Shown here one piece after another: positions 9,830 through 28,846 of a DNA stretch of 64,000 bases. The stretch comes from Escherichia phage CMSTMSU. A model generated the notes under the pieces. The model had not been told where the DNA came from. It searched no databases and saw only the letters and a list, made by a program, of their open reading frames with translations. Within the stretch, counting starts at the first letter, position 1; every line of letters starts with the position of its first letter. Both the position numbers and the translations under genes were made by a program. The DNA is taken from sequence record MH494197.1; one strand, given 5' to 3'.

Positions 9830-12800
9830 ATGTACTCGATTAAAACAGATCTAGATATAACTGGTGGTGCAACGGTTGGTAAAGATCTTCTTGTGAAAGG
9901 CGATGCAGTATTCAATAAAAATCTAACAGTTAATGGAACTGTAACTTTTGCTGACGCTGTATTCACTGCAATTGAAGCAGGAACTGTAGACATTTCATCT
10001 ACACTAGATGTTGCTGGTAAAGCATCATTGAATGGTGGAATTGAAGTTCATGGTAATTCCGTAATTGGTAATTTGCCTGTTGGCTCTGATACTGCAACGA
10101 TTAATTCTAATGCACAATTCCAAAGCCCAGTATCAATGGCAGGTAACCTAACACAAACCGCTGGCACTGCTGTACTAAAAGATACCCAAGTGGCATCAAT
10201 GGATGTTCTTGGAACTTCTTCATTTAAAGGTAATATTACTGCTGAAACTGGCACTACCGCAGCATTTGACAAAATAACTGCAACTGATGCAACATTCACA
10301 AACACTGCAACTACTGATATCACATCAACTGGAACTGCAAACTTTAAAGATGTGAATATTTCCGGTACACTAGGTGGAACATTTAGTCTATCTGATGTTA
10401 ATGCAACAACTCTAACTGTTTCTGGTTTAACCAGTCTACAAGGTGGTGTTACATTAGGTTCCAACATTACTGGTGTGAATAGTAGTGCAAACTTCCGTGA
10501 TATTAAAATTGGTTCCAATGCTGCAAACACTAACTACCGTTTGAGCTTTAACTATTCTGCTCCAAGTCTTCGCCCAACTGTAATTCTACAGAACGAAATC
10601 CAATCAGAATTGATGTCTCCAGCTACCCTAAGTGTATTGAAAACTGCATCTTTTGGTGATTCGTCATTATCCACTTTTGGTATTACTGGTAATGGTCTAA
10701 ACAAACTAGATTACCTAACAGTATCTGGTAACTCTGTTCAAGATCCAGCAACTCCACTATTACAAGTAACTTCAGGTAAAACTAAAGTTCATGATTTCGA
10801 AGTAACAGGAACTGCAACTATTCCTAACATTGAAAGTACTGGTACTGCTAATTTTAATAACATCAACGTATCTGGTACACTCGGCGGTACTTTCAGTCTT
10901 GATGATATTGAAGCAAACACTCTAACTGTTTCTGGATTAACTAGCCTTGTTGGTGGTGTAACTTTAGGTGCTGATATTTCCGGTGCTAATAGTACTGCTA
11001 ATTTTAAAGCAGTAAGTTTAGGACAAAACGCAGCCGATGCTAACGTTAAGTATGGTTTTGCTTATTCTGCCCGGTGCTCGTCCAACTGTAATTCTACAAA
11101 ATGAAATTCAGTCTGAACTAGTATCTCCAGCAGTACTAAATGTACAAAAACTGCTACCTTTGGTGATGCATCTCTTGCAACCTATGGTATCACAGGTAAC
11201 GGTCTAAACAAACTAGATTATCTATCTATTACTGGTAATGGTACACAAAGTCCAGCTACCCCACAACTACAAGTAGCTGGTAAATCAGTACTAAATGATG
11301 TTGAATTCACTGGTACTGTAACTGGTCTAACTGTTGATGTGAGTGGACAAGATCTAACTCCTAAATCAGTAGTTGCTGCTGAAGCAATCAAAGGTCAAAC
11401 CCTTGAATCAGTTGGTCAAACCACCGTAGGAACTAACCTACAAGTTGGTGGAACTGCTAATGTTGTTGGTGCACTAACTGGTACTGCTGCTACCTTCACT
11501 GGTGATGTAAGTGCTGCTAAAGGTACTTTCAGTGGTGATGTTAGCGTTACTGGTCAAACTGTAACTGTACGTGATTTAGTAGTAACTGGTACAACTACTG
11601 GTGTAACTGCCCAAGCTGATGTTGATGGTCTTGATATCGCCCCAAATAAAGTTGATGTTACAACAACACTATCTGTTGCTGGGGACACTACTTTAGCTGG
11701 CCTAACTGCTAGTTCAGTAACCAGTACTGGTGATGTTACTGGTGCGTCTGTATCTGGTAATACAGTAACTGCGGCTGGTGCACTATCTGGTGGTTCTCTT
11801 GCAGTAACTGGTGCTGGTTCTATGGCTTCACTAACTGTTCCAAGTATTACTGGTGACACTACTTTTGCTAATAACGTAACTATTACTGGAACACTAACTC
11901 CGAGTAGTATAGATTTAAGCACTACTGATGTAAGTGCTGCTTCTTTAACAACTACTGGTAACGTAACTGTTGGTGGTTCTCTTGCAGTAACTGGTGCTAT
12001 TGATTTGTCTGCTGCTGATGTAGTAACAAAATCAGTTAGTGCAACTAACCCAAGTACATTTGGTGTAATTAATGCATCTTCTGTTGTCGCAACTGGTGAC
12101 GTTTCAGGTGGCACTCTAACTACTACTGGTGCAGCGAAAGTAGGAACACTAACTAGTACTGGTGTAGTATCTGGTTCGCGTTTGTCTTCTGGTACTGCAA
12201 CAATCTCAACTTCTGTAACAGTTCCAACTTTACAAGCTGAAGCTGCTGGTGCTGGTACACTAAATCTAGCAAGTAATGTTGTCGCGGCAAAGATCTAACT
12301 GTCACTGGTGTATTCAAACCTGAAGGTGGTCTTGACCTAACAACTGTTGATATTACTGCAAACTCACTAACTACTACTGCTGATGTTAATGTTGGTGGAA
12401 ACTTAGTAGTTGATGGTACTTTTGACCTAAGTGCTGCTGATGTGTCTGTGAAATCTCTTGCAAGTGCAGAGACAATTACAAGTGCTGGTGTTATTACCGT
12501 TACCGATTCAACCAATACTAGTTCGTTACCTAAAATTACTTCAACTGATGCAACACTCTTTACAGTAAATGCAGGTACTATTAATGCAACTGGCAACAGT
12601 GTACTACAAAGTGTATCAGCTACTCAAGTAACTGCAACTAGTGCTGAATTGACTGGTGTTGGTCTTGGTCTTCAAGTCGATAATGATGCAAACGTTGGTG
12701 GTGCATTATCTGTTGGTGGAATCGCAACTGTTGGTTCTTTAACAACAACTGCTGCTTCTCTTAATATTGCAAAAATACTGCAATCACTGGTGATTTAGCT

Positions 12801-14759
12801 GTATCTGGCACACTAACTGCTGGTTCAATCGACCTAAGCAATACTGATGTAACCGTTAAATCTCTTGATTCACTAGGTAACGCACACATTGCTGGTGACC
12901 TAACTGTAGATGGTGCATTCGACTTAAGTGCAACTAACCTTGTAGCTGCAAGTCTAGCAAGTACTGGTTCTACTACTGTTGGAACTGATCTAGTACTAAC
13001 AACTGGTGTTGTGACTGGTAGCCCAGCTATCTCTGGTAATACAACAATCGGTGGAACTCTTGGTGTAACTGGTGCTGTTAACCTAACTGATATTGTTAAT
13101 ATCGGTAAGAAAGTAACAGTGAGTACTGGTGGTATTCAGGTAGTTGATGGTGGTATCAATACTAACACAATTAACGTTTCTGGTGCTTCTACTCTAGCAG
13201 GAACTTCCATTACTGGAACTTTAGGTGTAACTGGTGCTTCTACTCTAGCAGGTGTATCTGCGACATCACTAACAGTTTCTGGTGACAGTACTGTTCAGAA
13301 ACTAACTGTCCAAGGTGAATTGATCCCACAAGGTGGTCTTGACCTAAGCGGTGCAGACATTACTGCTAATAGTCTAACTACTGCAACAACTATCAATGCA
13401 ACTGGCCTAAGTACTCTAAGTGGTGGTGTTAGTACTTCTACTGTGACTGCATCTGGTCTAGCAACTGTTGGAAGTTTAACTTCTACTGCAAACGCATCAG
13501 TTGGTGGCAATTTGGGTGTAACTGGAACTCTAGATGTTACTGGTGCTACTACTGTATCTTCACTAACAGCTACTGGTGCAGTGAAAACTGGCACAACCCT
13601 AACTGTTGGTACTCCAGTTGGTGAACAACCTGAAACTGTACAGATCATTCCAGATACTTATATTGCTGGTAAATTGCGTGTAATCGGCGGTATTAACGCT
13701 GAAATCGACGTAAGTGGTCAAACACTAGAACCATATGCAATTGAAGCTGCTGCAACACTATCTGCTGTTGGTAACATTACTTCTGGTGCAACCATCGTTT
13801 CTAAAGCTGCAACAATTGGTGATGTTGGTTCACAAAACAACAACCTAACTGTTAATGGTAACGTAGTAACTAATGGTGACTTCACCGTTACTGGTGTACT
13901 AAATGCACAATTGAACCAAGCAGATTCCGATGTAGCTGTTAAATCTTTAACTGCAACTAATAACGTTGCGGCTGGTACTTCAATCACTGCTGGAACATCC
14001 ATCACTGCATCAGGCTTACTAAAAGGTAATTCGTTAGAAGTCACCACTACTGGTTCATTTGGTGGTGCAGTAACTATGTCAAGTGGTGCAAACATCACTG
14101 GTACTGTTGGTATCACTGCTGGTGACCTAACAGTAGGTGGTAATATCTCTGCAACTGGGACTGCTGGATTCGGTGCAACAACCGTTTCTACCATTACAAC
14201 ATCAGGTTTAGCTACACTTGCAAGTGCATCTGTAACTGGTGCTCTAACTGTAGGTGGTACATTAACTGCAAATGGTAACACTGTGATTGGTGATGCTGCT
14301 GCTGATACTTTAACTGTAAATGCAACATCGACATTTAAAGAGAACGCAACATTTGATAAGAACCTAACAGTGACTGGTTCTATTAACACCACCACTGCAA
14401 ACTTCACCACAAACAACATGGTAACTAAGAAATATTCTGTTATCCCTGCTAGTGTTACTGCTTCTACTGCTGCTGTAGGTGGTACTTGGACACCAGATGG
14501 TACTACTAACGTATATCGCTTAACTCTTGACCAAAGTGTTACAATGGATTCCATCGCGGGTCTAATTGGTAGTGGTCAAGCATGTTCAGTGTATATCTAT
14601 GTAACTCCATCTGTTGCTGATACTACTTTCACCTTCGGTGGTGCATACTCTGTAGTTTCTGGTACAGTAAGTGCTGTAGTTGGTCAAACAAGTATTATCC
14701 AAGTAATCTATGATGGTTTCAGTACTGTGTTTGATACCTTCGTTGCACAACGTGTATAA
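9830..14759 (+). CDS. Giant repeat-rich fibre protein A (~1640 aa), reading frame broken at about 11100, 12300 and 12800
   Basis: Track ORFs 9830..11104, 11339..12298, 12442..12798 and 13011..14759 all carry V/T/G/S/A-rich short repeats (xTVxGxxTLxG). RBS GGAGGGA. N- and C-termini are paralogous to fibre B. Confidence 0.6.
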
Positions 14760-14905: not shown

Positions 14906-17900
14906 ATGTACTCGATTAAAACGGATCTTGATGTATCTGGTAATTCCACGGTAGGTAAGGATCTTTTGGTCAAAGGTAATGCAGTATTCAGTAATGACCT
15001 AACGGTTAATGGGGAAGTGTCTTTTGCTAACGCAGTATTCACTGCAATTACCGCTGGTTCTGTGAATGTCACAGGTGCATTGGATGTTGCTGGTAAGGCA
15101 ACCTTATCCGGTGGTGCTGATGTTTCAGGTGCTGCGACATTTGCAGGAAACATTACTGCTGCTGACGGCACAACTGCAAAATTTGATAACTTAGAAGCTA
15201 ATTCAGGATCATTTAATTCTGTTGAATCAACTGATATTACTTCAACTGGCACAGCAACTTTTAAAGATGTAAACATTTCTGGTACACTTGGTGGTACTTT
15301 TAATCTTTCTGATATTAATGCTACAACACTTAATGTGTCTGGTGCTTCAGCACTAACTGGTTCAGTCACATTGGGTGCAAATATCACTGGTCTTGCAAGT
15401 ACTGCAAACTTCCGTGATATTCGTATCGGGCCTAATGAAGAAGGTCAAGCATATAGACTAAACTTTGGTTACACCGTTCGGACAACGACCAACCGTTCTT
15501 CTACAGAACGAAGTTCAATCCGAACTAATGTCTCCTGCTAAGTTGAATGTTCTACAAACTGCAACATTTGGTGATTCTTCACTTTCAACTTACGGTATTA
15601 CAGGTAATGGTTTAAACAAATTAGATTATGTAACTATTTCTGGTAACGCAATTCAATCACCAACCACTCCTTTACTTGAAGTAACTAAAGGTAAAACTAA
15701 AGTTGTTGATTTAGAAGTGACTGGCGTAGCAACTATTCCTAATATCGAAAGTTCTGGTACTGCAAACTTTAACAACATCAACGTATCTGGTACTATTGGT
15801 GGTAGTTTTGATTTAGATGATATCCAAGCAACAACATTATCAGTATCCGGTGCTTCAGCACTAACTGGTGCAGTTACATTGGGTGCAAACATCACTGGTC
15901 TAGCAAGTACTGCAACATTCAAAGCAATCAATTTGGGTCAAAATACCGCTGATGCTAACGTTAAGCTAGGTTTTGCATATACTGCACCTAGTGCACGTCC
16001 AACAGTCTTGTTAGCAAACGAAGTTCAATCTGAACTAATGTCTCCTGCTAAGTTGAACGTTCTACAAACTGCAACCTTCGGTTCTGCTGCACTATCTACC
16101 TATGGTATTACTGGTAATGGTCTAAACAAATTAGATTATCTAACAATTACTGGTAACGCAACACAAAACCCTGCTACTCCACAACTTCAAGTTGGTGGTA
16201 AAGCAATTCTTAATGATGTTGAATTTACAGGTACTGTAACTGGCCTAACTGTTGATGTGAGTGGACAAGATCTAACTCCTAAATCAGTAGTTGCTGCTGA
16301 AGCAATCAAAGGTCAAACTCTTGAATCAGTTGGTCAAACAACTGTAGGTTCATCTCTACAAGTTGGTGGTACTGCAACTGTTACTGGTGCATTATCTGCT
16401 GCCGCTGGTACTTTCAGTGGTGATGTTAGTGGTTCTAAAGGTATCTTCAGTGATAGCGTATCCGGTACAAGTGCAACCTTTACTGGGGATGTTAGCGGTG
16501 ATAACGCAACCTTTAGTGGCGATTTATCTGCTGTAGCTGGCACTTTCAGTGGTGATGTAACCGTAACTGGTCAAACAATCACTGTTAAAGACTTGGTAGT
16601 AACTGGAACTTCAACTGGTGTAACTGCAATCGCTGACGTTGACGGTCTTGATATTGCTCCAAACAAAGTTGATGTTACAACAACTCTATCTGTTGCTGGT
16701 GAATCAACTCTTGCTGGTGTTACAGCAACTTCAATCAATAGTACTGGTGCAATTGCAGGTACTGCAATTTCTGGCTCTACTATTACAGCAACTGGTGAAA
16801 TTTCTGGTGCATCATCTGTAGTAACTGGTCTTTCTAAATCTGGTAGCGTTGAAACTGGTGCTCTAAAGGCATCTTCTGTTGAAACTGCAATCATTAGCAA
16901 CACTGCTGGTGTGTCAATAACAAACAACACTTCAATTGCAGGTAATCTATCTGTAACTGGAACTGTTACCCCGTGCAATTGACCTAAGTACTACTGATAT
17001 TGATGCTAAGTCTCTAACAACTACTGAAGGTGCTAACATTGGTGGTGACCTAGTTGTTGCAGGTACAGTTGATCTAAGTGCTGCTGACGTTGCTGTTAAA
17101 TCTCTAACCAGTACTGGTGCAGTTATTAGTTCTGAAGGTACAGTAAGTAGTGTTCTACCTAAACTTTCCAGTACTGAAGCTAATATTACCACAGTAACTG
17201 CAACCACTGCAAATGCTACCACACTAAATGTAACTGGTACATCAACTCTAGCTGGTGTTAACGCTTCTGGTGCTATTACTTCTGCAACTAACATTACCGC
17301 TACTGGTGTATTAAAGGTGCATCTGTTGAAACTGCGTCAATCAGCAATGCTGATGGTGTAGCAATTAACAATAACACTACAATCACTGGTAATTTGGACG
17401 TATCTGGGACATTGACCCGTGCAATTGACCTAAGTACTACTGATATTAGTTCTAAGTCTCTAACCACAACTGAAGGTGCTACAATTGGTGGCGATCTTGT
17501 GGTAGCAGGTACTGTTGATCTAAGTGCTGCTGATGTGTCGGTGAAATCTCTTGCAAGTGCAGAGACAATTACAAGTGCTGGTGTTATTACAGTTTCGGAT
17601 ACAGTGAATTCTAGCACTCTACCAAAACTAATTACTACTGATGCAACTATTGGTGCTGTCCATGCAGCTACTATTGAAACAACTGGTTCAAGTACACTAA
17701 AACAAGTATCTGCTACTGAAGTAACAGCTACAAGTATTGTACTAAATTCAGTTGGTGAAGGTTTACGTGTTGACAATAATGCAAACATTAATGGTATATT
17801 AAGTGTTAATAATATTACTTCTACCAATGATACTATTGCAATTGCGAAAAGTGCTGCTATTACTGGTGATCTGACCGTATCTGGAACTGTTACCCCGGTG

Positions 17901-20608
17901 CAATTGACCTAAGTACTACCGATATTAGTTCTAAATCCTAAGTACTACTGAAGGTGCTACAATTGGTGGTGACCTAGTTGTTAATGGTTCAATTGATTTA
18001 AGTTCTTCCAATGTTTCAGCAATTACCCTTGCTAGTTCTGGTAATACTACCGTTGGTGGTAACCTAGTACTAACAACTGGTGTTGTGACTGGCAGCCCAT
18101 CTGTATCTGGTAACCTTTCAGTTGCAGGTACTGCGGCAGTAACTGGTGCAACTACCTAACTGATATCGTAAATATCGGTAAGAAAGTAACTGTAAGCACT
18201 GGTGGTATTCAAGTAGTTGCAGGTGGTATTAATACCGACGCTATATTAGTATCCGGTGATACAACTTTAAACAACACTACTGTAAACACTACCTTAAATG
18301 TAACTGGTCAAAGTACAGTTGCTGCACTAAGTGCTGCATCTTTGAATGTATCTGGTGATAGTACTGTTCAAAACTAACAGTTGAAGGTGAATTGGTTCCA
18401 CAAGGTGGTATCGACCTAACTGGTGCAGATATTTCTGCTAATAGTCTTGCAACTGCTTCAACAATCACTGCAACTGGACTAAGCACACTAAGTGGTGGTG
18501 TAAGTACTACTAATGTTACTGCATCTGGTACAGTGAATGCTGGTAGTTTGGATGTTACTAACAACGCAACCGTTGGTGGTAATTTGGGTGTAACTGGTTC
18601 ATTAACTTCTGGACCATTGAGTGTAACAGGCATTGCGAATATTACTGGTGTAACAACTGTTGGTTCATTGGTTTCCGGTGCTGTATCTGGTAGTACTGGT
18701 ACATTTAGTTCAACATTAGGTGTAACTGGTGCAGCTACATTTGACAATGACGTAACTGTTGAAGGTGTATTCACCCCAGCAGGTGGTTTAGACCTAACAA
18801 CTTCTGATATTACAGCTAAGAGTTTGTCAGTATCTGAAACTATTCACTCTGATGGTGCAGCTTCCTTTGGTGGTAACACAACAGTAGGTGGTACATTGGG
18901 TGTAACTGGTGCAGTAACTGCTCCATCGGCAACCCTAAGCGGTACTGGTACTGCACTAGCAGTAACTAATAATGCAACTATTGGTGGTACATTGGGTGTA
19001 ACTGGTCAAGCAACACTTGGTTCTATAGTAACTTCTGGTGTATCTGCAACAAGTGGCTCTTTCAGTACTACTCTTGGCGTTACTGGTGCTGCGACATTTG
19101 GAAACGATGTAACTGTAGTTGGAACACTAACTCCGGTAGCTTAGATCTAACTGGTGCAGATATCTCTGCTAAAACACTAACTCTATCTGAAACATTAAAT
19201 GCGACAGGTAATACTACCCTTGGTGGAACATTAGGTGTAACTGGTTTAGCAACAATTGGTGGAACACTAACGTCTGGTGCAGTAACTGCTCCATCTGCAA
19301 CCTTGAATGGTTCAGGAACTGGTCTAGCAGTAACTAACAACGCAACCGTTGGTGGTACATTAGGTGTAGTTGGTCAAACAACACTAGGTTCTGTTAAAAC
19401 TGGTGCAACTCTAACAGTTGGTACACCATTAGGTGAGCAGCCTGAAACTGTACAGATTATGCCAGACACTTATATTGCTGGTAAACTACGTGTTGAGGGT
19501 GGTATTAACGCAGATATCGATGTTGGTGGACAAACACTAGAACCGTTTGCAGTAATAGCATCTGATTCTTTATCTTCTGCTGGTAATATTACTGCTGGTG
19601 CGGCAATTATTTCAAGTTCTGCAACAATTGGTGAAGTCGGTTCACAAAACAACAACCTAATCGTTAATGGTAACGTTGTAAACAACGGTAACTTCACTGT
19701 TACTGGTGTACTAAATGCACAATTGAACCAAGCAGATTCCGATGTAGCTGTTAAGTCTTTGACTGCAACTAACAACGTAGCTGCTGGAACCACATTAAGT
19801 GCAGGTACTGCAATTACTGCTGGTACTTCCATCACTGCAACTGGATTACTTAAAGGTAATACTTTATTACTACTACTGGTTCATTTGGTGGTGCAGTAAC
19901 TATGTCAAGTGGTGCAAACATCACTGGTACAGTGGGTATTACTGCTGGTAACCTAACAGTGGGTGGTGATATCTCTGCAACTGGCACTGCTGGATTCGGT
20001 GCAACAACCGTTTCTACAATTACAACATCAGGTTTGGCTACACTTGCAAGTACATCCGTTACTGGTAACGCAACAGTAGGTGGAACACTAGCAGTAACAG
20101 GAGCACTAACTGCGAATGGTAACGTAACATTAGGTGACGCAGCGGCTGACGTTCTAACCGTTAATGCAACTTCATCATTTAAAGAAAATGCTGTGTTTGA
20201 TAAGGCAGTAACAGTAACTGGTGAACTAACCACTACTAATGCTAACTTAACTACTACAACAGTAACTACCAAAAGTATGATGTAATCCCAACTCAAGTTA
20301 CATCATCAGTAATTGCTCCAACCGGAACATGGACTCCAGATGGTACAAGTAACGTGTACTTCATCACTCTAGACCAAGATACCACGTTGGCTCCAATTAC
20401 TGGCCTAATTGGTGGCGGTAAAGCTGCATCAGTATACATCTATGTTAAACAAGATACAACTGGTAACAGAAACTTTACAACTGATGGTACTTATGCTGTT
20501 GTTGATGGTGAACTAAACAAAACTGCTGGTAGCGTGACCATTTACCAAGTAATTTATGATGGTGTAAGTCCAGTTACTGATTTGTTCATTGCACAACGTA
20601 CTGCTTAA
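14906..20608 (+). CDS. Giant repeat-rich fibre protein B (~1900 aa), several frame breaks
   Basis: Starts MYSIKTDLDVSG with RBS TAGGAGGGA. Pieces 15465..16982, 17394..17912, 18392..19144, 19303..19899, 19902..20285 and 20354..20608. Shares long near-identical nucleotide blocks with fibre A. Confidence 0.6.
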
Positions 20609-21540: not shown

Positions 21541-23501
21541 ATGAGTATAAATCGAATTAGAGGTGATGGTGGTGTAATTATAGATAGTCAGGCATTTCTA
21601 GAATTACCTAAAGCACCGACTAAAGAAACCGCTGATGTGGTTAGATCAGGGATGATTAGATACAATAAAGGATGGAAAGCATTTGAAGGTGTACTAGACT
21701 TTGAAGATGGTTCAATGGCATATCGACGTTTTGCAAACCTAGATGCAAACGGTAAACTTCTTACTTCCCAATTACCAGATTCAGTAACTAGTGGTTTACA
21801 ATTTGTTGGTACATATAATCCCATCCCAGATGATATCGATCCACCTTTAGCACAAACTCCACTACCAGCACCATCACCATCGCTTAATGGTGATTATTAT
21901 GTCGTTCGTGGTATAATGGATGCCGCACAAGCACATTATGAAGCAAATAATCCACAAACAAGTCCTGTTACATTTACACCTACAAATCCAACTGGACAAG
22001 GTAATTGGATTGAAATTTTATATTATGTTGACTCTAATCCAAATATATCTGGTGCTAAACTAGTAACATACGCTTTTGCTAGAATTATTACTGCATCTAT
22101 TCCCAGTACTGGACATGATGGCCTTGAAAATTTAGCAACAGATACTGACTTGACCAAACCATTTGCATCTGGTGTTCCAATGAACCAAACTGCACTTTCA
22201 GATGGCGATTGGATTATTATAACTGAAGATAAGAATATACGTCTTCGTCAGTCAAGAACAAGCATTTCCGCTGCTTCAGTATTATATGACAATACTGTAA
22301 TGATTGCAAATCATCGTCAATTTAGAACAAACGCAGGGACCGTTCAAACATCCATAGATAACGTTGTGATTGAGTGTTTACGTAGAACTGGCGATTCCAT
22401 GTATAATGATGGAACAGACGGCTCTGGGCGTTTTGGGGTGGTGTATGGCAGTGCAGCAGCACCAGCATTGACATTTAATAATAATCCGTTTGACCCAACG
22501 AACAACCCGTAATGACCCAACTAAGTGGTCCGATGCTAATACTGGTATATTCCATCCAGCAGATGATGCAATTGGTTTTACAACAGCCGGAACTGAGCGT
22601 GTTCGAATTAATAATGGAACACTAACATTATTCCAAACTACCGCTACACCAGCAGCTACGCCAGTAATACGTTTTGATAATGCATCAAACACAAACGTAG
22701 GGATAAGTGCAAGTAGTAATATTATTTCTTTAAGTTCAATGAATAAAATTCAAGTTGAATTTAAAAATGGTGAATCACATTTTCATGGAAATATTATTGT
22801 AGATGGATCAACATCACTAACAGGTGATTTAAACGCAGGTAACATCACTGCCAGCGGAATTTAGTTGTTAAAGGTAATACAACACTAGGCGACACTACTG
22901 GCGACACTATTACAGTTAATGGTGTTAGTACTTATAATGCAAATACTAATTTCAATGGAACTAATAACAAATTCAAAACATAAACTTACTAGAGAATGGT
23001 GTATTCACATTAGAAAGTACTACAAACCAAAGTGATATAAAACTACTTGGTGCAGACTTACGTTTCACTATGGGAAGTTATGCTGATGTAAGTATATATG
23101 ATAACGGTGTTATTCGTACTCGTTTCAACCGATATGGTATTCAATTACCAGTACTGGCTACAATTGATAACTCAGTTGGTGTTGATGGTATGATTGCATA
23201 CTCAAATACCGAACGTACATCGATGCAGAAGGTCCAAGGACAATGGGTTCCAATTGGTTCTGGTTCTGTACGTACTGACCCGTTTACTGCGTCAGCGTGG
23301 GTTTTAAACGGCTCATATTACACATTAACAGTAACTGCTAGTAACATAGTAACTGCTGAAATTCAAGAACTCGTAAGTACTGGTGTTTACACTCGTGTTG
23401 AAGTTGATAGTGTCACATTCAATGGAACAAGCGTAGTGTTCAGTATTCCTGCAACTCCTGATGTGAGATTTGCCGGACGTACACTGGTTACATTAAGATA
23501 A
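21541..23501 (+). CDS. Tail fibre protein (~650 aa), frame broken at about 22500, 22865 and 22985
   Basis: Track ORFs 21541..22512, 22490..22864 and 23070..23501 are collinear with short bridging frames. Recurring G(M)I(R/A)Y(N/S) fibre-like motifs; N-terminal RGD. Confidence 0.5.
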
Positions 23502-23502
23502 T

Positions 23503-23530
23503 AAAAAGGAGACTTATGTCTCCTTTTCTT
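23503..23530. terminator. Bidirectional rho-independent terminator between the fibre gene (+) and thyA (-)
   Basis: GGAGAC-TTAT-GTCTCC flanked by an A-run upstream and a T-run downstream. Confidence 0.6.
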
Positions 23531-24460
23531 TATACAGCCATTGGTGCTTTGATCGTTGGCATTGGATCGTAATTAACTAATTTGAAAGAATCCATAGTGA
23601 AATCTTCAATATCAGTAATAGTAGGATCTAACCATAATTCTGGTAATGTACGTGGTTCACGTTGGAGTTGCTCTTTTACTTGTTCAATATGGTTTTGATA
23701 GATATGGCAGTCGCCACCATTCCAAATAAATTCACCAACATCTAACCCTGTAATTTGTGCAATCATATGAGTTAGTAGTGAGTAACTACTAATATTAAAT
23801 GGCACACCAAGGAATAGATCAGCACTACGTTGATGAAGAATACAACTTAGTTTACCCTGTACAACACAAAACTGCACAAAGCTATGACAGGGTGGCAAAG
23901 TCATAGCATCAAGCTCACCAACGTTCCATGCACTTAGAATGTGACGACGACCATATGGATCAGTATTGATACCTTCAATAACTTGTTTTAGCTGGTCAGT
24001 TACGACGCATAATAACACCATGTGAACCAGTATAATCAATAACTTTATACCCTTTATCTTTTAGTTCTTGAATTTCTTCAGTACTGGAACTGAATTTATA
24101 ATCTTCCCATTCACGCCATTGTTTACCATAAACTGGGCCAAGCTCACCATCAGAATACCCAAGGCTTACACCTTGATTAAGGTAGTTGTCTGTCCAAATT
24201 GTTTTCTTTTCTACATCACGTGTCCCGTGTAAAATTTCACACAGACGACGCTCATCGTGAGAACCTTCAATAAACCATAACAATTCTGAAGTCATTGCTT
24301 TCCAAGCTAAACGTTTAGTAGTTACTGCTGGGAAACCTTCTTTTAGGTCAAAACGCATTTGTTGTCCGATTAGCTTGATAGTGCCAACACCAGTACGATC
24401 AACGCTTTCGACACCTTGATCCAGAATTCTTTGATATAGTTCTTGTAGTTGTTTCATTTT
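23530..24460 (-). CDS. thyA: Thymidylate synthase, split into two overlapping frames near 24000-24040
   Basis: N-terminal piece contains [16 protein letters not shown] and GPVYGKQWR; C-terminal piece contains [29 protein letters not shown] and APMAV. These are the universal ThyA motifs and are collinear with E. coli ThyA. Confidence 0.85.
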
Positions 24461-24461
24461 A

Positions 24462-24820
24462 CGTCCTTGAAAAATGTAATAAAGTGTTCCATGTGTTTTG
24501 TGTAGCATTACGTGAACCAATCCCAGTCCAGTTACCGTGTGGTGCTGGTATTGAGAATGTTTCAGTAAACTCTTTCAGTACTGTATCATAATAAAATACA
24601 GAGCGAGTGTTCATATCATAACAATATATTTCTGGATTGTCAACTGAATCCATATACATCTGTACGGCCCATGCAGTTCCACCTGAAACTTGCGTAGGTG
24701 ATGTAATATTTGCAATACAATATACTCTTTTGTATTAAGTATCTGGTAACTATTCCTTGCAAGTAAGTTATATACATACGAACCGCTTAGGAACTTTACG
24801 GCGTAAAGAGTAACATGCAA
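24462..24820 (-). CDS. Hypothetical small protein(s); two overlapping ORF fragments
   Basis: Track ORFs 24459..24659 and 24611..24820; stop overlaps the thyA start. Confidence 0.25.
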
Positions 24821-24954
24821 TGTTTAATTGTTTTAATATTGAACTATCACAAAGGATATTGGGTGGAATTTCTAATATAGTATTTTCATCTACGCTGCTT
24901 TGGTGACCCTTGAATGAAAAATTTATTACTTCAAATCCATTGTCTTTTGCATAG

Positions 24955-24988
24955 ATAGAAAAAGGCGGTCAGCACCTGCTGCCCGCCA
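24955..24988 (-). terminator. GC-rich hairpin terminator (minus strand)
   Basis: GGCGG-CAGCA-CC-TGCTG-CCGCC with an A-run on the plus side, giving a U-run after the hairpin on the minus transcript. Confidence 0.45.
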
Positions 24989-25040
24989 CTGAAACATACA
25001 TTAGATAAACCATTGATTGCTTCATCTAATTCTATTTTAT

Positions 25041-25700
25041 TCATTTATATTATTTTGCTTTACGTTCTGCAAATGCCTGTTTAACTTTCTCAATTGCTTT
25101 GGTTTGTGAAATTCCTTCTGGGATTTCAATATAGAAAGTTTTGCTATCAGGTGCTACAGGTGTTGCTTGAACTTGTGGACGTAGAGATGGTTCTAAGTTG
25201 TAAGCACGTTCAAAGTGCTCTTTAGCCAACTGCTCATAACGTTGTGCATCTTTAAGTAGTTGCTCAACAATGGTAGCTTCTTCAACAGAAGTATCAACTT
25301 CTTGTGGCTTGAATGGGTTGTATTCTTTAACTTTACCATCTTCATGTTTTTAGCATCATTATCATTGATTGCGTTGTTTAGAACATCAAGAGAAATCTTA
25401 CTGTTTCCACCAACATGCATATCAATATCACAAGTACGTGCACGACGCAAATGTTGTAGATTATGAAGAACATCTAGCATTTTGCGACCGTCTAGATGAC
25501 CAATCTTATGCATAACTTCCCACAAATCTACATTCGATTGACCTTGATTCATTACTAAATCTGCAACAGATTGAGCATATGCTTCAGGAAGTGAGTCGCG
25601 ATAAACAATGAGACAATGTTCTGGATCATCAGGAGTGAACGCCATACCACAAATACTCGTGAACCCGTATTACGTACTACACCAACGTGACGAATAGCCA
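25041..25700 (-). CDS. Hypothetical protein (~220 aa), one frameshift
   Basis: Starts MAIRHVGVVRNTG with RBS AAAGGAGAA; continues through ORF 25193..25645 and a C-terminal frame ending ...AFAERKAK. Confidence 0.35.
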
Positions 25701-25706
25701 TTATTA

Positions 25707-25881
25707 TTCTCCTTTATTTTGTTCAGCAGCAGCTTGTGCAGCATCAGCTTCTTCTTGTGCTTTGATATCTTCGAGTGCAGAGTTAGCAAACTCAACAAAC
25801 TTAGATACGACTGGAGCAACATCAACAAGTTCTTCGACTTTAAATGAATTACGAGCCACAGCAGCTTCCATGATTTTAGCA
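25707..25881 (-). CDS. Small acidic Ala-rich protein (~58 aa)
   Basis: MEAAVARNSFKVEELVDVAPVVSKFVEFANSALEDIKAQEEADAAQAAAEQNKGE; below the track's size cut-off. Confidence 0.25.
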
Positions 25882-25999
25882 GCGTTGATTAGGTCGATTA
25901 GTGTTAGTTGAATTTTTCTGGTTCTTGTTCCATTTTAATACTCTCCATGTATGTTGTTACAAATATAATTATATCACCTTTTTCCAAGCTGTCCCGCTG

Positions 26000-26029
26000 A
26001 AAAAGTAGAAACGGAATTTTCCGTTCTCA
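26000..26029 (-). terminator. Rho-independent terminator after the VWA gene
   Basis: GAAACGGAA-TTT-TCCGTTCTC with a T-run on the minus transcript. Confidence 0.45.
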
Positions 26030-26033
26030 TTAT

Positions 26034-27447
26034 TTAGTACTTAGCTACGTTGACGCTTTTGTCAGCTTCATATTCGTAGTGTACAGTTTCGCCAAATGGT
26101 GCTTGTTTGTTAGGATTGCTGTGGATAACAAACAGTGTCTTACAGTAATCAGGATCACCCCATGACTGCCACGGCTCACCATCGGTAAACATAATAAGCT
26201 GTTTAGGCTTATAGTTGTCATGCTTCATATGAACCCATACTGCTTCAAAGTCAGTACCACCACCACCTTTCACTGGATATTCGAGAATCTTACTCTCTTC
26301 ACCAGTTTTGTAATCTTTCACAGTATAAACTTCAGTATCGAACGTCATGATACGGATTTTAAATTGTTTAAACTGCTTAGTGATACCCAGTACTTCACTG
26401 ATGAAATCACGGAGCATATCTTCAGAGATAGAACCGGATGCATCTAGTGCAATTGCAATATCAATATCATCATCTGGTTTCATACCGGGAAGATTGGATT
26501 CCCGTAGAATGAACCAGAACTACCAAAACCAGCACCCCATGAACGACGATTAGGATTTTGATAAGTTGCATCAGACTTCAACCAGCTACGCAGTGTGCGG
26601 TGAAGTTTAGAACGCCAGTCAATCTTAGGTTCTTTGAAGTTGTTAATCATACGTGCGATTTCAGCAGGAGTACCACCTGCACGAGCAGCATTCATCATTG
26701 CTGTTTTGAAATCATCCATATAATCACGTTTTTGTTTCTCACTTGAACCACCCTCTTGACCTTCTTGTGGAACGTCATGCTGGTCGATTGTTGTACCTTT
26801 GCCTTTACCATCTTTGATATCACCAAAAGTACCGCGTGATTTACCTTCACCCTCACCACTACCAGCCTGTGGATTTCCTTCACCTTCTCCGTCTTGATCC
26901 TGCTTATCTTCTTCTTCGAGAATATTATAAATCTCTTCAGCAGTCATACCATCGTACTTTTTATCGTACAGCCATTGGCTTTGGATTTTACCAATTTTAT
27001 CACGAACAAGAATCTGGTTAATTGCATAGTCAGCAGCACGGTTATAACGCTGCGGGTCACGCATACCACGACGCAAGAAGTGGTCATATGCACAGTGAAG
27101 AATTTCATGACAAATAACTGCAATCAGGTTTTCATCAGTCAAACCTTCTGTCATTTCTTTAAGTTGTTCTTCAGTTACTTCAGGATGTTTCTCACGAATT
27201 GCTTCTTCGTATGCTGACTTTTGGATTGGTCCTGAATACCCATGATGAATTCTACGTTGTAGAATAAATGCTTACCATCTACAGCCAAAGTACGACACCA
27301 TGTGTTGTTTGCAACTGGACGCAGACGAGAAGCCAGTACACCAAAGAATGGGAATGTTAGCATTAAAGATGTGCGAGCTAAGATCAGACGATCTTGACAT
27401 TCTTTCTGGAGAGCCGGAGTAACATCACTGAAACGTTTATCTGACAT
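26034..27447 (-). CDS. Two-domain protein: N-terminal HExxH zinc-metallopeptidase-like domain plus C-terminal von Willebrand factor A domain (DUF2201-like VWA partner of MoxR ATPases); frame broken twice
   Basis: CHEILHCAYDH (HExxH) in ORF 26480..27154; DIAIALDASGSIS (MIDAS DxSxS) and GGGTDF in ORF 26034..26483; N-terminus in ORF 27175..27447. Confidence 0.7.
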
Positions 27448-27520
27448 TTGTATTTCCTCGTTTAGTTAAGATAAAGAAGGATACCATGTGGTATCCTCCT
27501 TGTCAACACTCTTTTAATTA

Positions 27521-28846
27521 TTAACCAAGAGAGCGTGCTTTACGTACTAGGTCAGAGTACTTCATAACGAAGTCTTTAAACGCTGGTACATCTTTAATCG
27601 TAATCGCTACTTTATGAAGCGTGATGGTACGAATCGCCAGTACTGCCAGTTCTGCTTGAGTTGCAGAGAAGTTATGGTCTAGGAAGGTGATGAAGTTGTT
27701 GCACAGCTTACCCCAATCTTCCACTGGTAGACGTTGTTCTTGCTTCTCATTGTAGAGGTCGATAATTTTGTAAACCAGATTCAGAGTGATGAAGTAGTTC
27801 GCGGAAATATCGAGCGAAGCATCAATCTCTTTAATCTCACCCTGTAGGATGGACATGGTATCTGGTAGTTTAGCTACGTTATCAACATACTCGATGTATT
27901 CAGTTGCTACGCCTTCACCAACACGACCTGCAATCATCGCACGGAACACTTCTTTATCAATGTTCTTAACTTTCTTCAGATCTTCGTAGCGTGCTACTGC
28001 TTCCCATGAACGTGGAGAAGTACCACCACAGTGAGAAGGATCTTGTGGGCTAAGGGTGTTGAAGTGTTTAGCACCAGTGTTGTTGATGAACGCTACAGTT
28101 GCTGGGTTCAAACGCTTGCCAATCGCATAATCGTTAATCCAATCTTGATGATAAGGAATCATTTCGATGTGGGTCATACGGTCACGCAGTGGTGTAGCTA
28201 GAGAGAACGTTACACCGCCATCAGTTTCACGGTTACCTGCTGCGAGAATCAGTGCAGTCTTAGGTAGCTTCATCTCACCAACACAACGGTCGAGGATTAG
28301 CTGATAAGACGCTGCCTGTACAATCGGCATTGCAGAGTTGATTTCGTCAAACAGAATAACACCTTTCCAATCTGGAGACAGTTTCAGTACTTTAGGTGCT
28401 GCCCACACAACTGCTGTTTCAGCGATGTAATCTTGTGCACTAGCCAGTTCAGATTCAATCAGTTGCTTACCATCCATATCAAGGAACACTTTCTCTGGAA
28501 CTGGGATACCACGAAGGTCACTTGGTTCAATCTGAGACAAACGGAAATCGATAAAGTTAGTGTCTTGGTCGATTAGTTTGGCTTCAAACGCTGCCAGTTC
28601 ACGGCGAAGTTGATCAGCATTTTCAGTATCAGCTTCGATTTGTTGTTTCATGAACTCAATTTTGCCACGTTATCTTTACGCAGTGGGTAGTTCTCATCAG
28701 CGTATTGACGTGCGATAGCAGATTTACCGATACGGGCTACCCCAAATCATCAGGCTATCTTGAATCATGTCAGCCAGTGCCATTGCTTCTTTAGCTTTCT
28801 TAGGAGTCAGTTTTACGTTCAGGATATCGTTGTTTTGAGTAGACAT
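27521..28846 (-). CDS. MoxR-family AAA+ ATPase (CobS-like); N-terminus with two frame breaks
   Basis: Walker A GSP-IGKSAIARQYA reconstructed at 28700-28750, PSDLRG, Walker B ILFDEINSAMP and sensor AAGNR in track ORF 27521..28651. ATG at 28846 with RBS AAAGGAAA. Confidence 0.75.

Follow-up and report, generated by a model that had tools for sequence, protein, structure and literature searches.

A GC-rich hairpin followed directly by a U-tract lies within the coding sequence of a DprA-like gene in Escherichia phage CMSTMSU, and alignments of the orthologous genes show that both elements are under nucleotide-level purifying selection, with compensatory change. The stretch of DNA that we analyzed, here called the window, covers 64,000 nucleotides (sequence record MH494197.1). 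We lean towards reading the hairpin as a conserved intragenic intrinsic terminator, which would divide an operon upstream of the DprA-like gene and the thymidylate synthase gene (thyA). Judged by its sequence, it is a well-supported intrinsic-terminator-like element within a coding sequence and represents no novel mechanism class. What could have been a coding shadow of a Gly/Ala motif is among the clearest synonymous-constraint signatures obtainable from 20 sequences. For RaK2-like jumbo phages, the hairpin would mark a specific predicted transcript boundary in a tightly packed operon, and the putative terminator and a conserved protein motif share the same 35 nucleotides, a compact example of dual coding. 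The features discussed below are as follows.

24964..24987, minus strand: GC-rich stem-loop, GGCGG-G-CAGC-AGGU-GCUG-A-CCGCC; codons 20-28 (G G A A G A D R L) of the DprA-like gene
24959..24963, minus strand: U-tract adjoining the 3' end of the hairpin (sense strand); codons L28-F29-(S/G)30
24454..25044, minus strand: DprA-like / SLOG gene (phrog_768; weak PF10686), 591 bp here, 597 bp and 198 aa in relatives
25050..25701, minus strand: upstream gene, 654 bp in relatives and frameshifted here by two deletions; 62 nt separate its stop codon from the hairpin downstream
23530..24457, minus strand: thyA; its start and the DprA-like stop overlap (ATGA), and loss of 2 nt at 24001 splits the ORF here
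25968..25995, minus strand: promoter-like site preceding the small first gene of the cluster (GGGACA-16-TATAAT with TG); the transcription unit presumably begins here
23503..23528, minus strand: A/T-richer terminator-like hairpin and T-run past thyA; presumed end of the transcription unit
26026-26009, minus strand: terminator-like hairpin before the cluster, from the terminator scan

Fold and coding context of the hairpin

The hairpin sequence, GGCGGTCAGCACCTGCTGCCCGCC, occurs once in the 64-kb window, at 24964-24987, and gave 0 matches in 100 shuffles. With ~75% G+C, against ~37% G+C for the window, it bears out the GC-rich hairpin of the original prediction. The range proposed at that time, 24955-24988, contains this core and also covers the A5 run at 24959-24963. 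The stem had been described as about 10 bp with two mismatches; the stem itself is confirmed, while the computed fold consists of 5 + 4 bp with one T·C mismatch (G·A on the sense strand) and a tetraloop. Folded as RNA, the minus (sense) strand has an energy of -16.6 kcal/mol (z = -2.4; 2 of 200 shuffles were equally stable), and the plus strand one of -16.9 kcal/mol (z = -4.0). The stem G run reads GGG in the window, compared with GGGG in the relatives (one G is missing), and the U-tract reads T5 in the window and T6 in the 99% identical relatives. The true hairpin probably contains a 2-nt/1-nt internal loop, with a predicted energy of -16.0 kcal/mol. Within a 160-nt context, the hairpin has a computed probability of ~1.0 (0.99-1.0) in seven phages, with no competing structure.

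A consensus scan flagged the site as terminator-like, and the anatomy expected of an intrinsic terminator is present: a hairpin rich in G+C (expected stem ~5-14 bp, loop 3-8 nt), a U-rich stretch right after the stem on the sense strand, a position downstream of a gene along the direction of transcription, though within the next ORF, and a structure kept in evolution (constraint or covariation). An Rfam scan of 22000-28000 with E up to 1 gave no match at the hairpin, and ARAGORN detected no tRNA or tmRNA in the window. Searching with the hairpin string and up to 3 mismatches found no copies in the window beyond the one site, a motif of the 3' arm and T-run found none either, and a covariance model from 13 orthologues gave a single significant match each in the window and in 50 kb of a relative. 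The original prediction had counted a lack of other copies against the element; none is indeed present in the window, which does not settle the matter, since terminators can occur singly. The single copy in the window led us to reject a repeated palindromic element (REP, MITE-like). Ribosomal frameshifting or transcriptional slippage at the T-run was likewise rejected: on inspection, CGC CTT TTT T is not an in-frame X XXY YYZ heptamer, the hairpin precedes the run instead of following it, and slippage would need a run longer than T6. A leader-type attenuator would require a mutually exclusive antiterminator; the terminator arm pairs with its own partner at a probability of 0.99-1.0 in the seven phages, and since there is no alternative antiterminator fold, the hairpin is not a classical leader attenuator.

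The hairpin had been placed in an AT-rich intergenic region between minus-strand genes, a setting that does not survive comparison with relatives. The window belongs to an Asteriusvirus-type (121Q/PBECO4/RaK2-like) jumbo coliphage, 99.4% identical here to EC.P1, fEgEco12, and vB_Ec-M-J. In 99% identical phages, the hairpin lies inside a continuous 597-bp gene, and the apparent gap corresponds to assembly frameshifts in the DprA-like gene. Six bases are missing from this gene in the window, at 24495, 24727, 24784 (2 nt), 24958, and 24981, so that it hops among all three frames and no long ORF is listed. Two of the six touch the hairpin feature itself (24981 in the stem and 24958 in the U-tract). 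In comparison with the 99% identical fEgEco12 over 49.8 kb (window 1-49614), 237 bases are missing and 1 is extra. The deletions are concentrated in homopolymers (mostly 3-7 nt) and CCWGG (Dcm) sites, for example CC[AG]G and CC[T]GG, a pattern that looks like the signature of uncorrected long-read consensus error. Most ORFs of the window are fragmented by such deletions, including those of thyA, the upstream gene, and many structural genes. At approximately one deletion per 210 bp, gene-based readings of the window need frame correction against relatives first. The window and the relative also gave off-diagonal cross-matches of 77-84% identity (10313-11536 with 15230-16452, and 13565-14264 with 19377-20090), a sign of paralogous segments internal to two adjacent giant 'long tail fiber proximal subunit' genes.

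Read against the intact relatives, the hairpin site is coding sequence, namely codons 20-28 of the DprA-like/SLOG gene. The 597-bp gene is labelled 'DprA-like DNA recombination-mediator protein' or 'DUF2493' in relatives, and 85 phage records encode the full protein intact. The protein matched phrog_768 (DprA-like; E = 4.7e-27, residues 4-164) and, weakly, PF10686 (YAcAr SLOG; 19.1 bits against a cut-off of 28.2) at residues 15-44, over the glycine motif; a search of NCBIfam gave no hit, and a PDB sequence search gave no relative. The sense strand of the relatives reads AGT GGC GGG GCA GCA GGT GCT GAC CGC CTT TTT, corresponding to S19-G-G-A-A-G-A-D-R-L-F29. In this translation, the hairpin codons spell the glycine-rich GGxxGxD loop of the SLOG/DprA-like fold (SGGAAGADRL), and GGxxGxD (SGGA.G[AS]D in most) is present in all examined homologues with a locatable motif. 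The gene begins 5 nt past the upstream stop, its end overlaps the thyA start, and no Shine-Dalgarno sequence is found ahead of its ORF.

The minus-strand cluster comprises, in order and all on the same strand, a 231-bp gene, the 654-bp gene, the DprA-like gene, and thyA; the hairpin lies ~1 kb into these four genes. Its distance of 62 nt from the upstream stop is usual for a terminator of the 654-bp gene. Phage Munch has terminators annotated at the positions equivalent to 26026-26009 and 23503-23528. Compared with vB_Ec-M-J, the hairpin at 23503-23528 carries dinucleotide deletions on opposite sides (AG at 23507 and CT at 23523) and four substitutions (23514, 23517, 23527, and 23528). In RaK2, Hallingskeid, Munch, and XaC1, an extra ~300-bp ORF overlaps the DprA-like start, and one or two small ORFs lie between the DprA-like gene and thyA, so that outside Asteriusvirus the operon is plastic around the conserved hairpin.

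We observed a sigma-70-like promoter sequence within the DprA-like gene (24615-24643, minus strand; TTGACA-17-TATGAT with TG, 11/12), ~160 nt before the thyA start. JNE01 retains both hexamers, and 121Q retains the -10 element, with TTGAAA at -35. As a promoter for thyA, this site was set aside, being found only in the closest relatives and absent from other genera; it is probably lineage-specific or due to chance. Further along, 26034-27447 and 27521-28651 (both minus strand) hold a gene called 'HNH endonuclease' in several relatives and a MoxR-like AAA ATPase preceding it. The product of the former carries a HEILH zinc-peptidase-like motif and a von Willebrand A-like C-terminal part here, and phage A4 names its counterpart a VWA domain protein; the HNH label looks like a propagated mis-annotation.

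Synonymous constraint and compensatory change

The hairpin and U-tract are present in 20/20 distinct RaK2-like genes of our core sample, which span 44-99% protein identity, and in further metagenomic contigs. The genes that bear them come from Asteriusvirus, RaK2, GAP32, CBB, BF, Yen9-04, Munch, Hallingskeid, XaC1, and others, and the orthologous hairpins have energies of -14.8 to -18.9 kcal/mol. In most genera the U-tract is U5 followed by GGUUUG, and a weakened form (CCGCC-AUUUU) occurs in JNE01 and L122.

Based on the codon alignment, the ratio of observed to expected synonymous change is 0.42 in the 5' arm (codons 19-20), 1.04 in the bulge, inner stem, and loop (codons 21-25), and 0.059 in the 3' arm and U-tract (codons 26-30), in comparison with 1.06 for the remainder of the DprA-like gene. 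Codons 26-30 showed 1 synonymous event, against 28 expected from the same-amino-acid columns elsewhere in the gene (parsimony on a neighbour-joining tree; Poisson 2e-11). The lowest 5-codon windows are at 0.41 in thyA and 0.46 in the upstream gene. R27 is CGC in 20/20 sequences, and each of the other four conserved Arg codons has changed 5-12 times. The U-tract codons (CTT TTT, then GGT TTG) are constrained as strongly as the stem. The fixed codons are rare in the phage (GGC 8%, GAC 25%, CGC 12%, CTT 18%), and only 0.1% of random synonymous encodings drawn with phage codon usage gave an equally stable hairpin with a T5 run. An overlapping ORF was rejected as the source of the constraint: the upstream ORFs stop at or within ~26 nt of the DprA-like start, before codon 19. 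Recent recombination behind the identical arms was rejected because the loop codons between them evolve neutrally.

Codons for Gly (GGN) and Ala (GCN) are self-complementary in part, which gives some of the stem for free, and the possibility of a mere by-product of the protein motif therefore had to be tested. The control consisted of 56 distinct distant homologues (30-40% identity) that keep GGxxGxD. Ten of the 56, mostly from GC-rich genomes, fold at <= -12 kcal/mol, 2/56 have a T-run of at least 4, and the hairpin and T-run occur together in 0/56. The feature is also absent from the neighbouring clade at 40-42% identity (SGGAKGSDCEWG). In the RaK2-like clade, residues 27-29 (R-L/F/H-F) do not vary, in contrast to the distant homologues (LQW, CEW, TLF, and others), a difference compatible with selection acting on these residues at the RNA level.

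Several lineages carry stem changes that preserve pairing. The third positions of Ala22 and Ala25 pair as A:U in 11 sequences, U:A in 3, and G:U in 2. In A4, XaC1, and the metagenomic contig L108, coordinated substitutions (AGT>AGC, GGC>GGT, CTT>TTT) have moved the outer stem by one codon, resulting in a perfect AGCGGU/ACCGCU helix. XaC1 and L108 also differ in amino acids (AAGA changed to AKGS or ASGS), and their new inner stems, GGAGCC/GGCUCU and GGGGCU/GGCUCU, keep the pairing. Overall, 91.7% of cells are paired, versus 29-54% with the partner slid. Formal covariation is modest: double changes affect 2 pairs, and RNAalifold assigns -0.2 kcal/mol to covariation; the argument rests mainly on the constraint pattern, not on covariation. 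Two IMG/VR contigs, L011 and L013, whose proteins are 99% identical, differ by three synonymous changes, all in the inner stem and loop of the hairpin (GCG..GGA GCT versus GCT..GGT GCA). Both versions pair, a hint that the inner stem turns over rapidly or is exchanged locally.

Predicted termination and rival explanations

In the RaK2-like phages, the synonymous positions appear to be constrained in such a way that the mRNA folds into a GC-rich hairpin of 9-10 bp ahead of a U-tract, which together would constitute a canonical Rho-independent terminator for the host RNA polymerase. A fraction of polymerases would stop at the U-tract and yield a short transcript of the two upstream genes, and the remaining polymerases would read through into a long transcript adding the DprA-like gene and thyA. 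The terminator is presumably leaky because of its mid-operon position, and would lower the DprA-like and thyA mRNA relative to the upstream genes. Since the ORF lacks a Shine-Dalgarno sequence and starts 5 nt past the upstream stop, closely following ribosomes would mask the hairpin; ribosomes re-initiating close behind the polymerase would favor read-through. Tightly coupled ribosomes are known to keep terminator hairpins inside translated genes from forming (Elgamal et al., mBio 2016, PMC5021804). We infer that termination occurs at the site and that translation modulates it; a gating of read-through by translational re-initiation is speculative. In its full form, this proposal holds that re-initiation at an ATG without a Shine-Dalgarno sequence shields codons 20-28, and that R27-L28-F29 were fixed by selection for the RNA signal and not for the protein, which we regard as rather doubtful. 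If it were true, the polarity of the operon would be set by translational coupling, and a regulatory RNA element would dictate the sequence beside an enzyme active-site loop in at least five phage genera.

Several published observations bear on the proposed terminator. [quoted passage not shown] CBB encodes a sigma factor (PMC5259590), as does Sharanji, whose authors suggest that it acts with the host polymerase (PMC11895373). We found no transcript-end maps in the literature for RaK2-like/Asteriusvirus phages, and transcript maps for PA5oct only. The hairpin site is absent from the 74 terminators listed for CBB in a supplementary table and from the terminators annotated in Munch. As a counterpoint, a terminator inside a packed, translationally coupled operon would lower thyA expression, and the use of this is not obvious.

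The original prediction had offered a terminator or RNA-stability element as one option. The sense-strand U-tract, the constraint, and the compensatory variants favor it, without the intergenic context in which it was framed. A conserved RNA structure with another role would account equally for the synonymous constraint and the compensatory changes, and is in keeping with a position 20-30 codons into the ORF and a hairpin probability of ~1 in context. Such a structure might protect the 3' end or serve as a processing site (RNase III or RNase E), act as a pause hairpin synchronizing transcription and translation, or delay ribosomes as a roadblock during folding of the nucleotide-binding loop. 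None of these roles calls for a U-tract, whose codons are nonetheless under the same constraint as the stem, and a hairpin with an immediate U5-6 is the defining anatomy of an intrinsic terminator; we consider them unlikely, though credible enough to be kept in mind. An element acting in DNA, such as an inverted repeat for a dimeric protein, or a cruciform or ssDNA hairpin for replication, recombination, or packaging, would match the conserved arms and variable spacer, which fit a palindromic operator, and the plus-strand fold, which is as stable as the minus-strand one. The arms and their register, however, vary by lineage with pairing kept (GGCGG/CCGCC versus AGCGGT/ACCGCT), and so do the inner stems (CAGC/GCTG, CTGC/GCAG, GGAGCC/GGCTCT). 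Moreover, the G:U wobble variants pair only in RNA, the T-run is conserved in a strand-specific manner, and there is one copy per 64 kb. An origin of the conservation at the DNA level thus appears quite improbable, and the protein-binding palindrome that had been put forward as the other option is disfavored because the arm sequences change while the pairing and U-tract are kept.

It is highly improbable that the hairpin has no nucleic-acid function and merely follows from the coding of a Gly/Ala-rich motif, from chance, or from codon-context effects. The foldable minority among the distant homologues speaks for such an origin, as does the fixation of 3/4 inner-stem pairs by non-synonymous positions; terminator-like matches in 12 kb number 10, compared with 6.4 ± 2.6 by chance, so that one match is within expectation. 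Against it stand the near-complete loss of synonymous events from five adjacent codons, with neutral intervening loop codons, the rarity of both the fixed codons and the encodings that reproduce the feature, and the absence of the combined hairpin and T-run from all 56 distant homologues. XaC1 and L108, which alter amino acids yet keep the pairing, point the same way, and the constraint, encoding, and homologue tests have already largely refuted this explanation. Scarcely credible is the literal reading of the original prediction, in which an ordinary intergenic terminator follows the 25041-25700 gene and the DprA-like gene is a true pseudogene here. The window as given contains no long ORF at 24454-25044, and the hairpin lies 62 nt past the upstream stop, but the same one-sided deletions in homopolymers and CCWGG sites break thyA and structural genes too, a pattern of consensus error and not of single-gene decay. 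In addition, all nine relatives with at least 98.5% identity align over 1409 bases, the intact length, compared with 1401 in the window.

Comparison with known systems

The favored reading, a conserved intragenic intrinsic terminator, places the hairpin beside canonical E. coli and phage intrinsic terminators, among them the ones predicted at both ends of this operon, with which it shares a 9-10 bp GC-rich stem, a tetraloop, an energy of -15 to -19 kcal/mol, the sense orientation, a U5-6 directly 3', and a position ~60 nt past a stop codon. Unlike these, it is contained entirely within the next ORF and occupies codons of a conserved motif, not a spacer. It also differs from the other predicted terminators of the phage, being much richer in G+C and located mid-operon. 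With REP-type elements, it has in common a GC-rich imperfect palindrome in an AT-richer genome, but it is a single-copy, intragenic feature with a conserved U-tract.

Synonymous-constraint elements are functional RNA structures that overlap viral coding sequence; they are detected by synplot-type methods and are known mostly from RNA viruses. The phage hairpin resembles them in its local substitution trough at a predicted structure, with free loops and fixed or covarying stems, and differs from most of them in its host, a dsDNA jumbo phage, and in its terminator anatomy. In the trp and his leader-peptide attenuators, the position of the ribosome relative to a terminator hairpin decides downstream read-through. 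Ribosome position would likewise decide read-through at the phage hairpin; in contrast to the attenuators, the phage ORF encodes a full-length enzyme-like protein, without a regulatory codon run or antiterminator pairing.

In its setting, the phage hairpin resembles the intragenic terminators masked by transcription-translation coupling (PMC5021804), in which the hairpin likewise lies in a translated region, and a dependence on ribosome proximity would be expected here as well. In contrast to those terminators, the phage hairpin, whose masking we infer, is not incidental but is kept by purifying selection in several genera.
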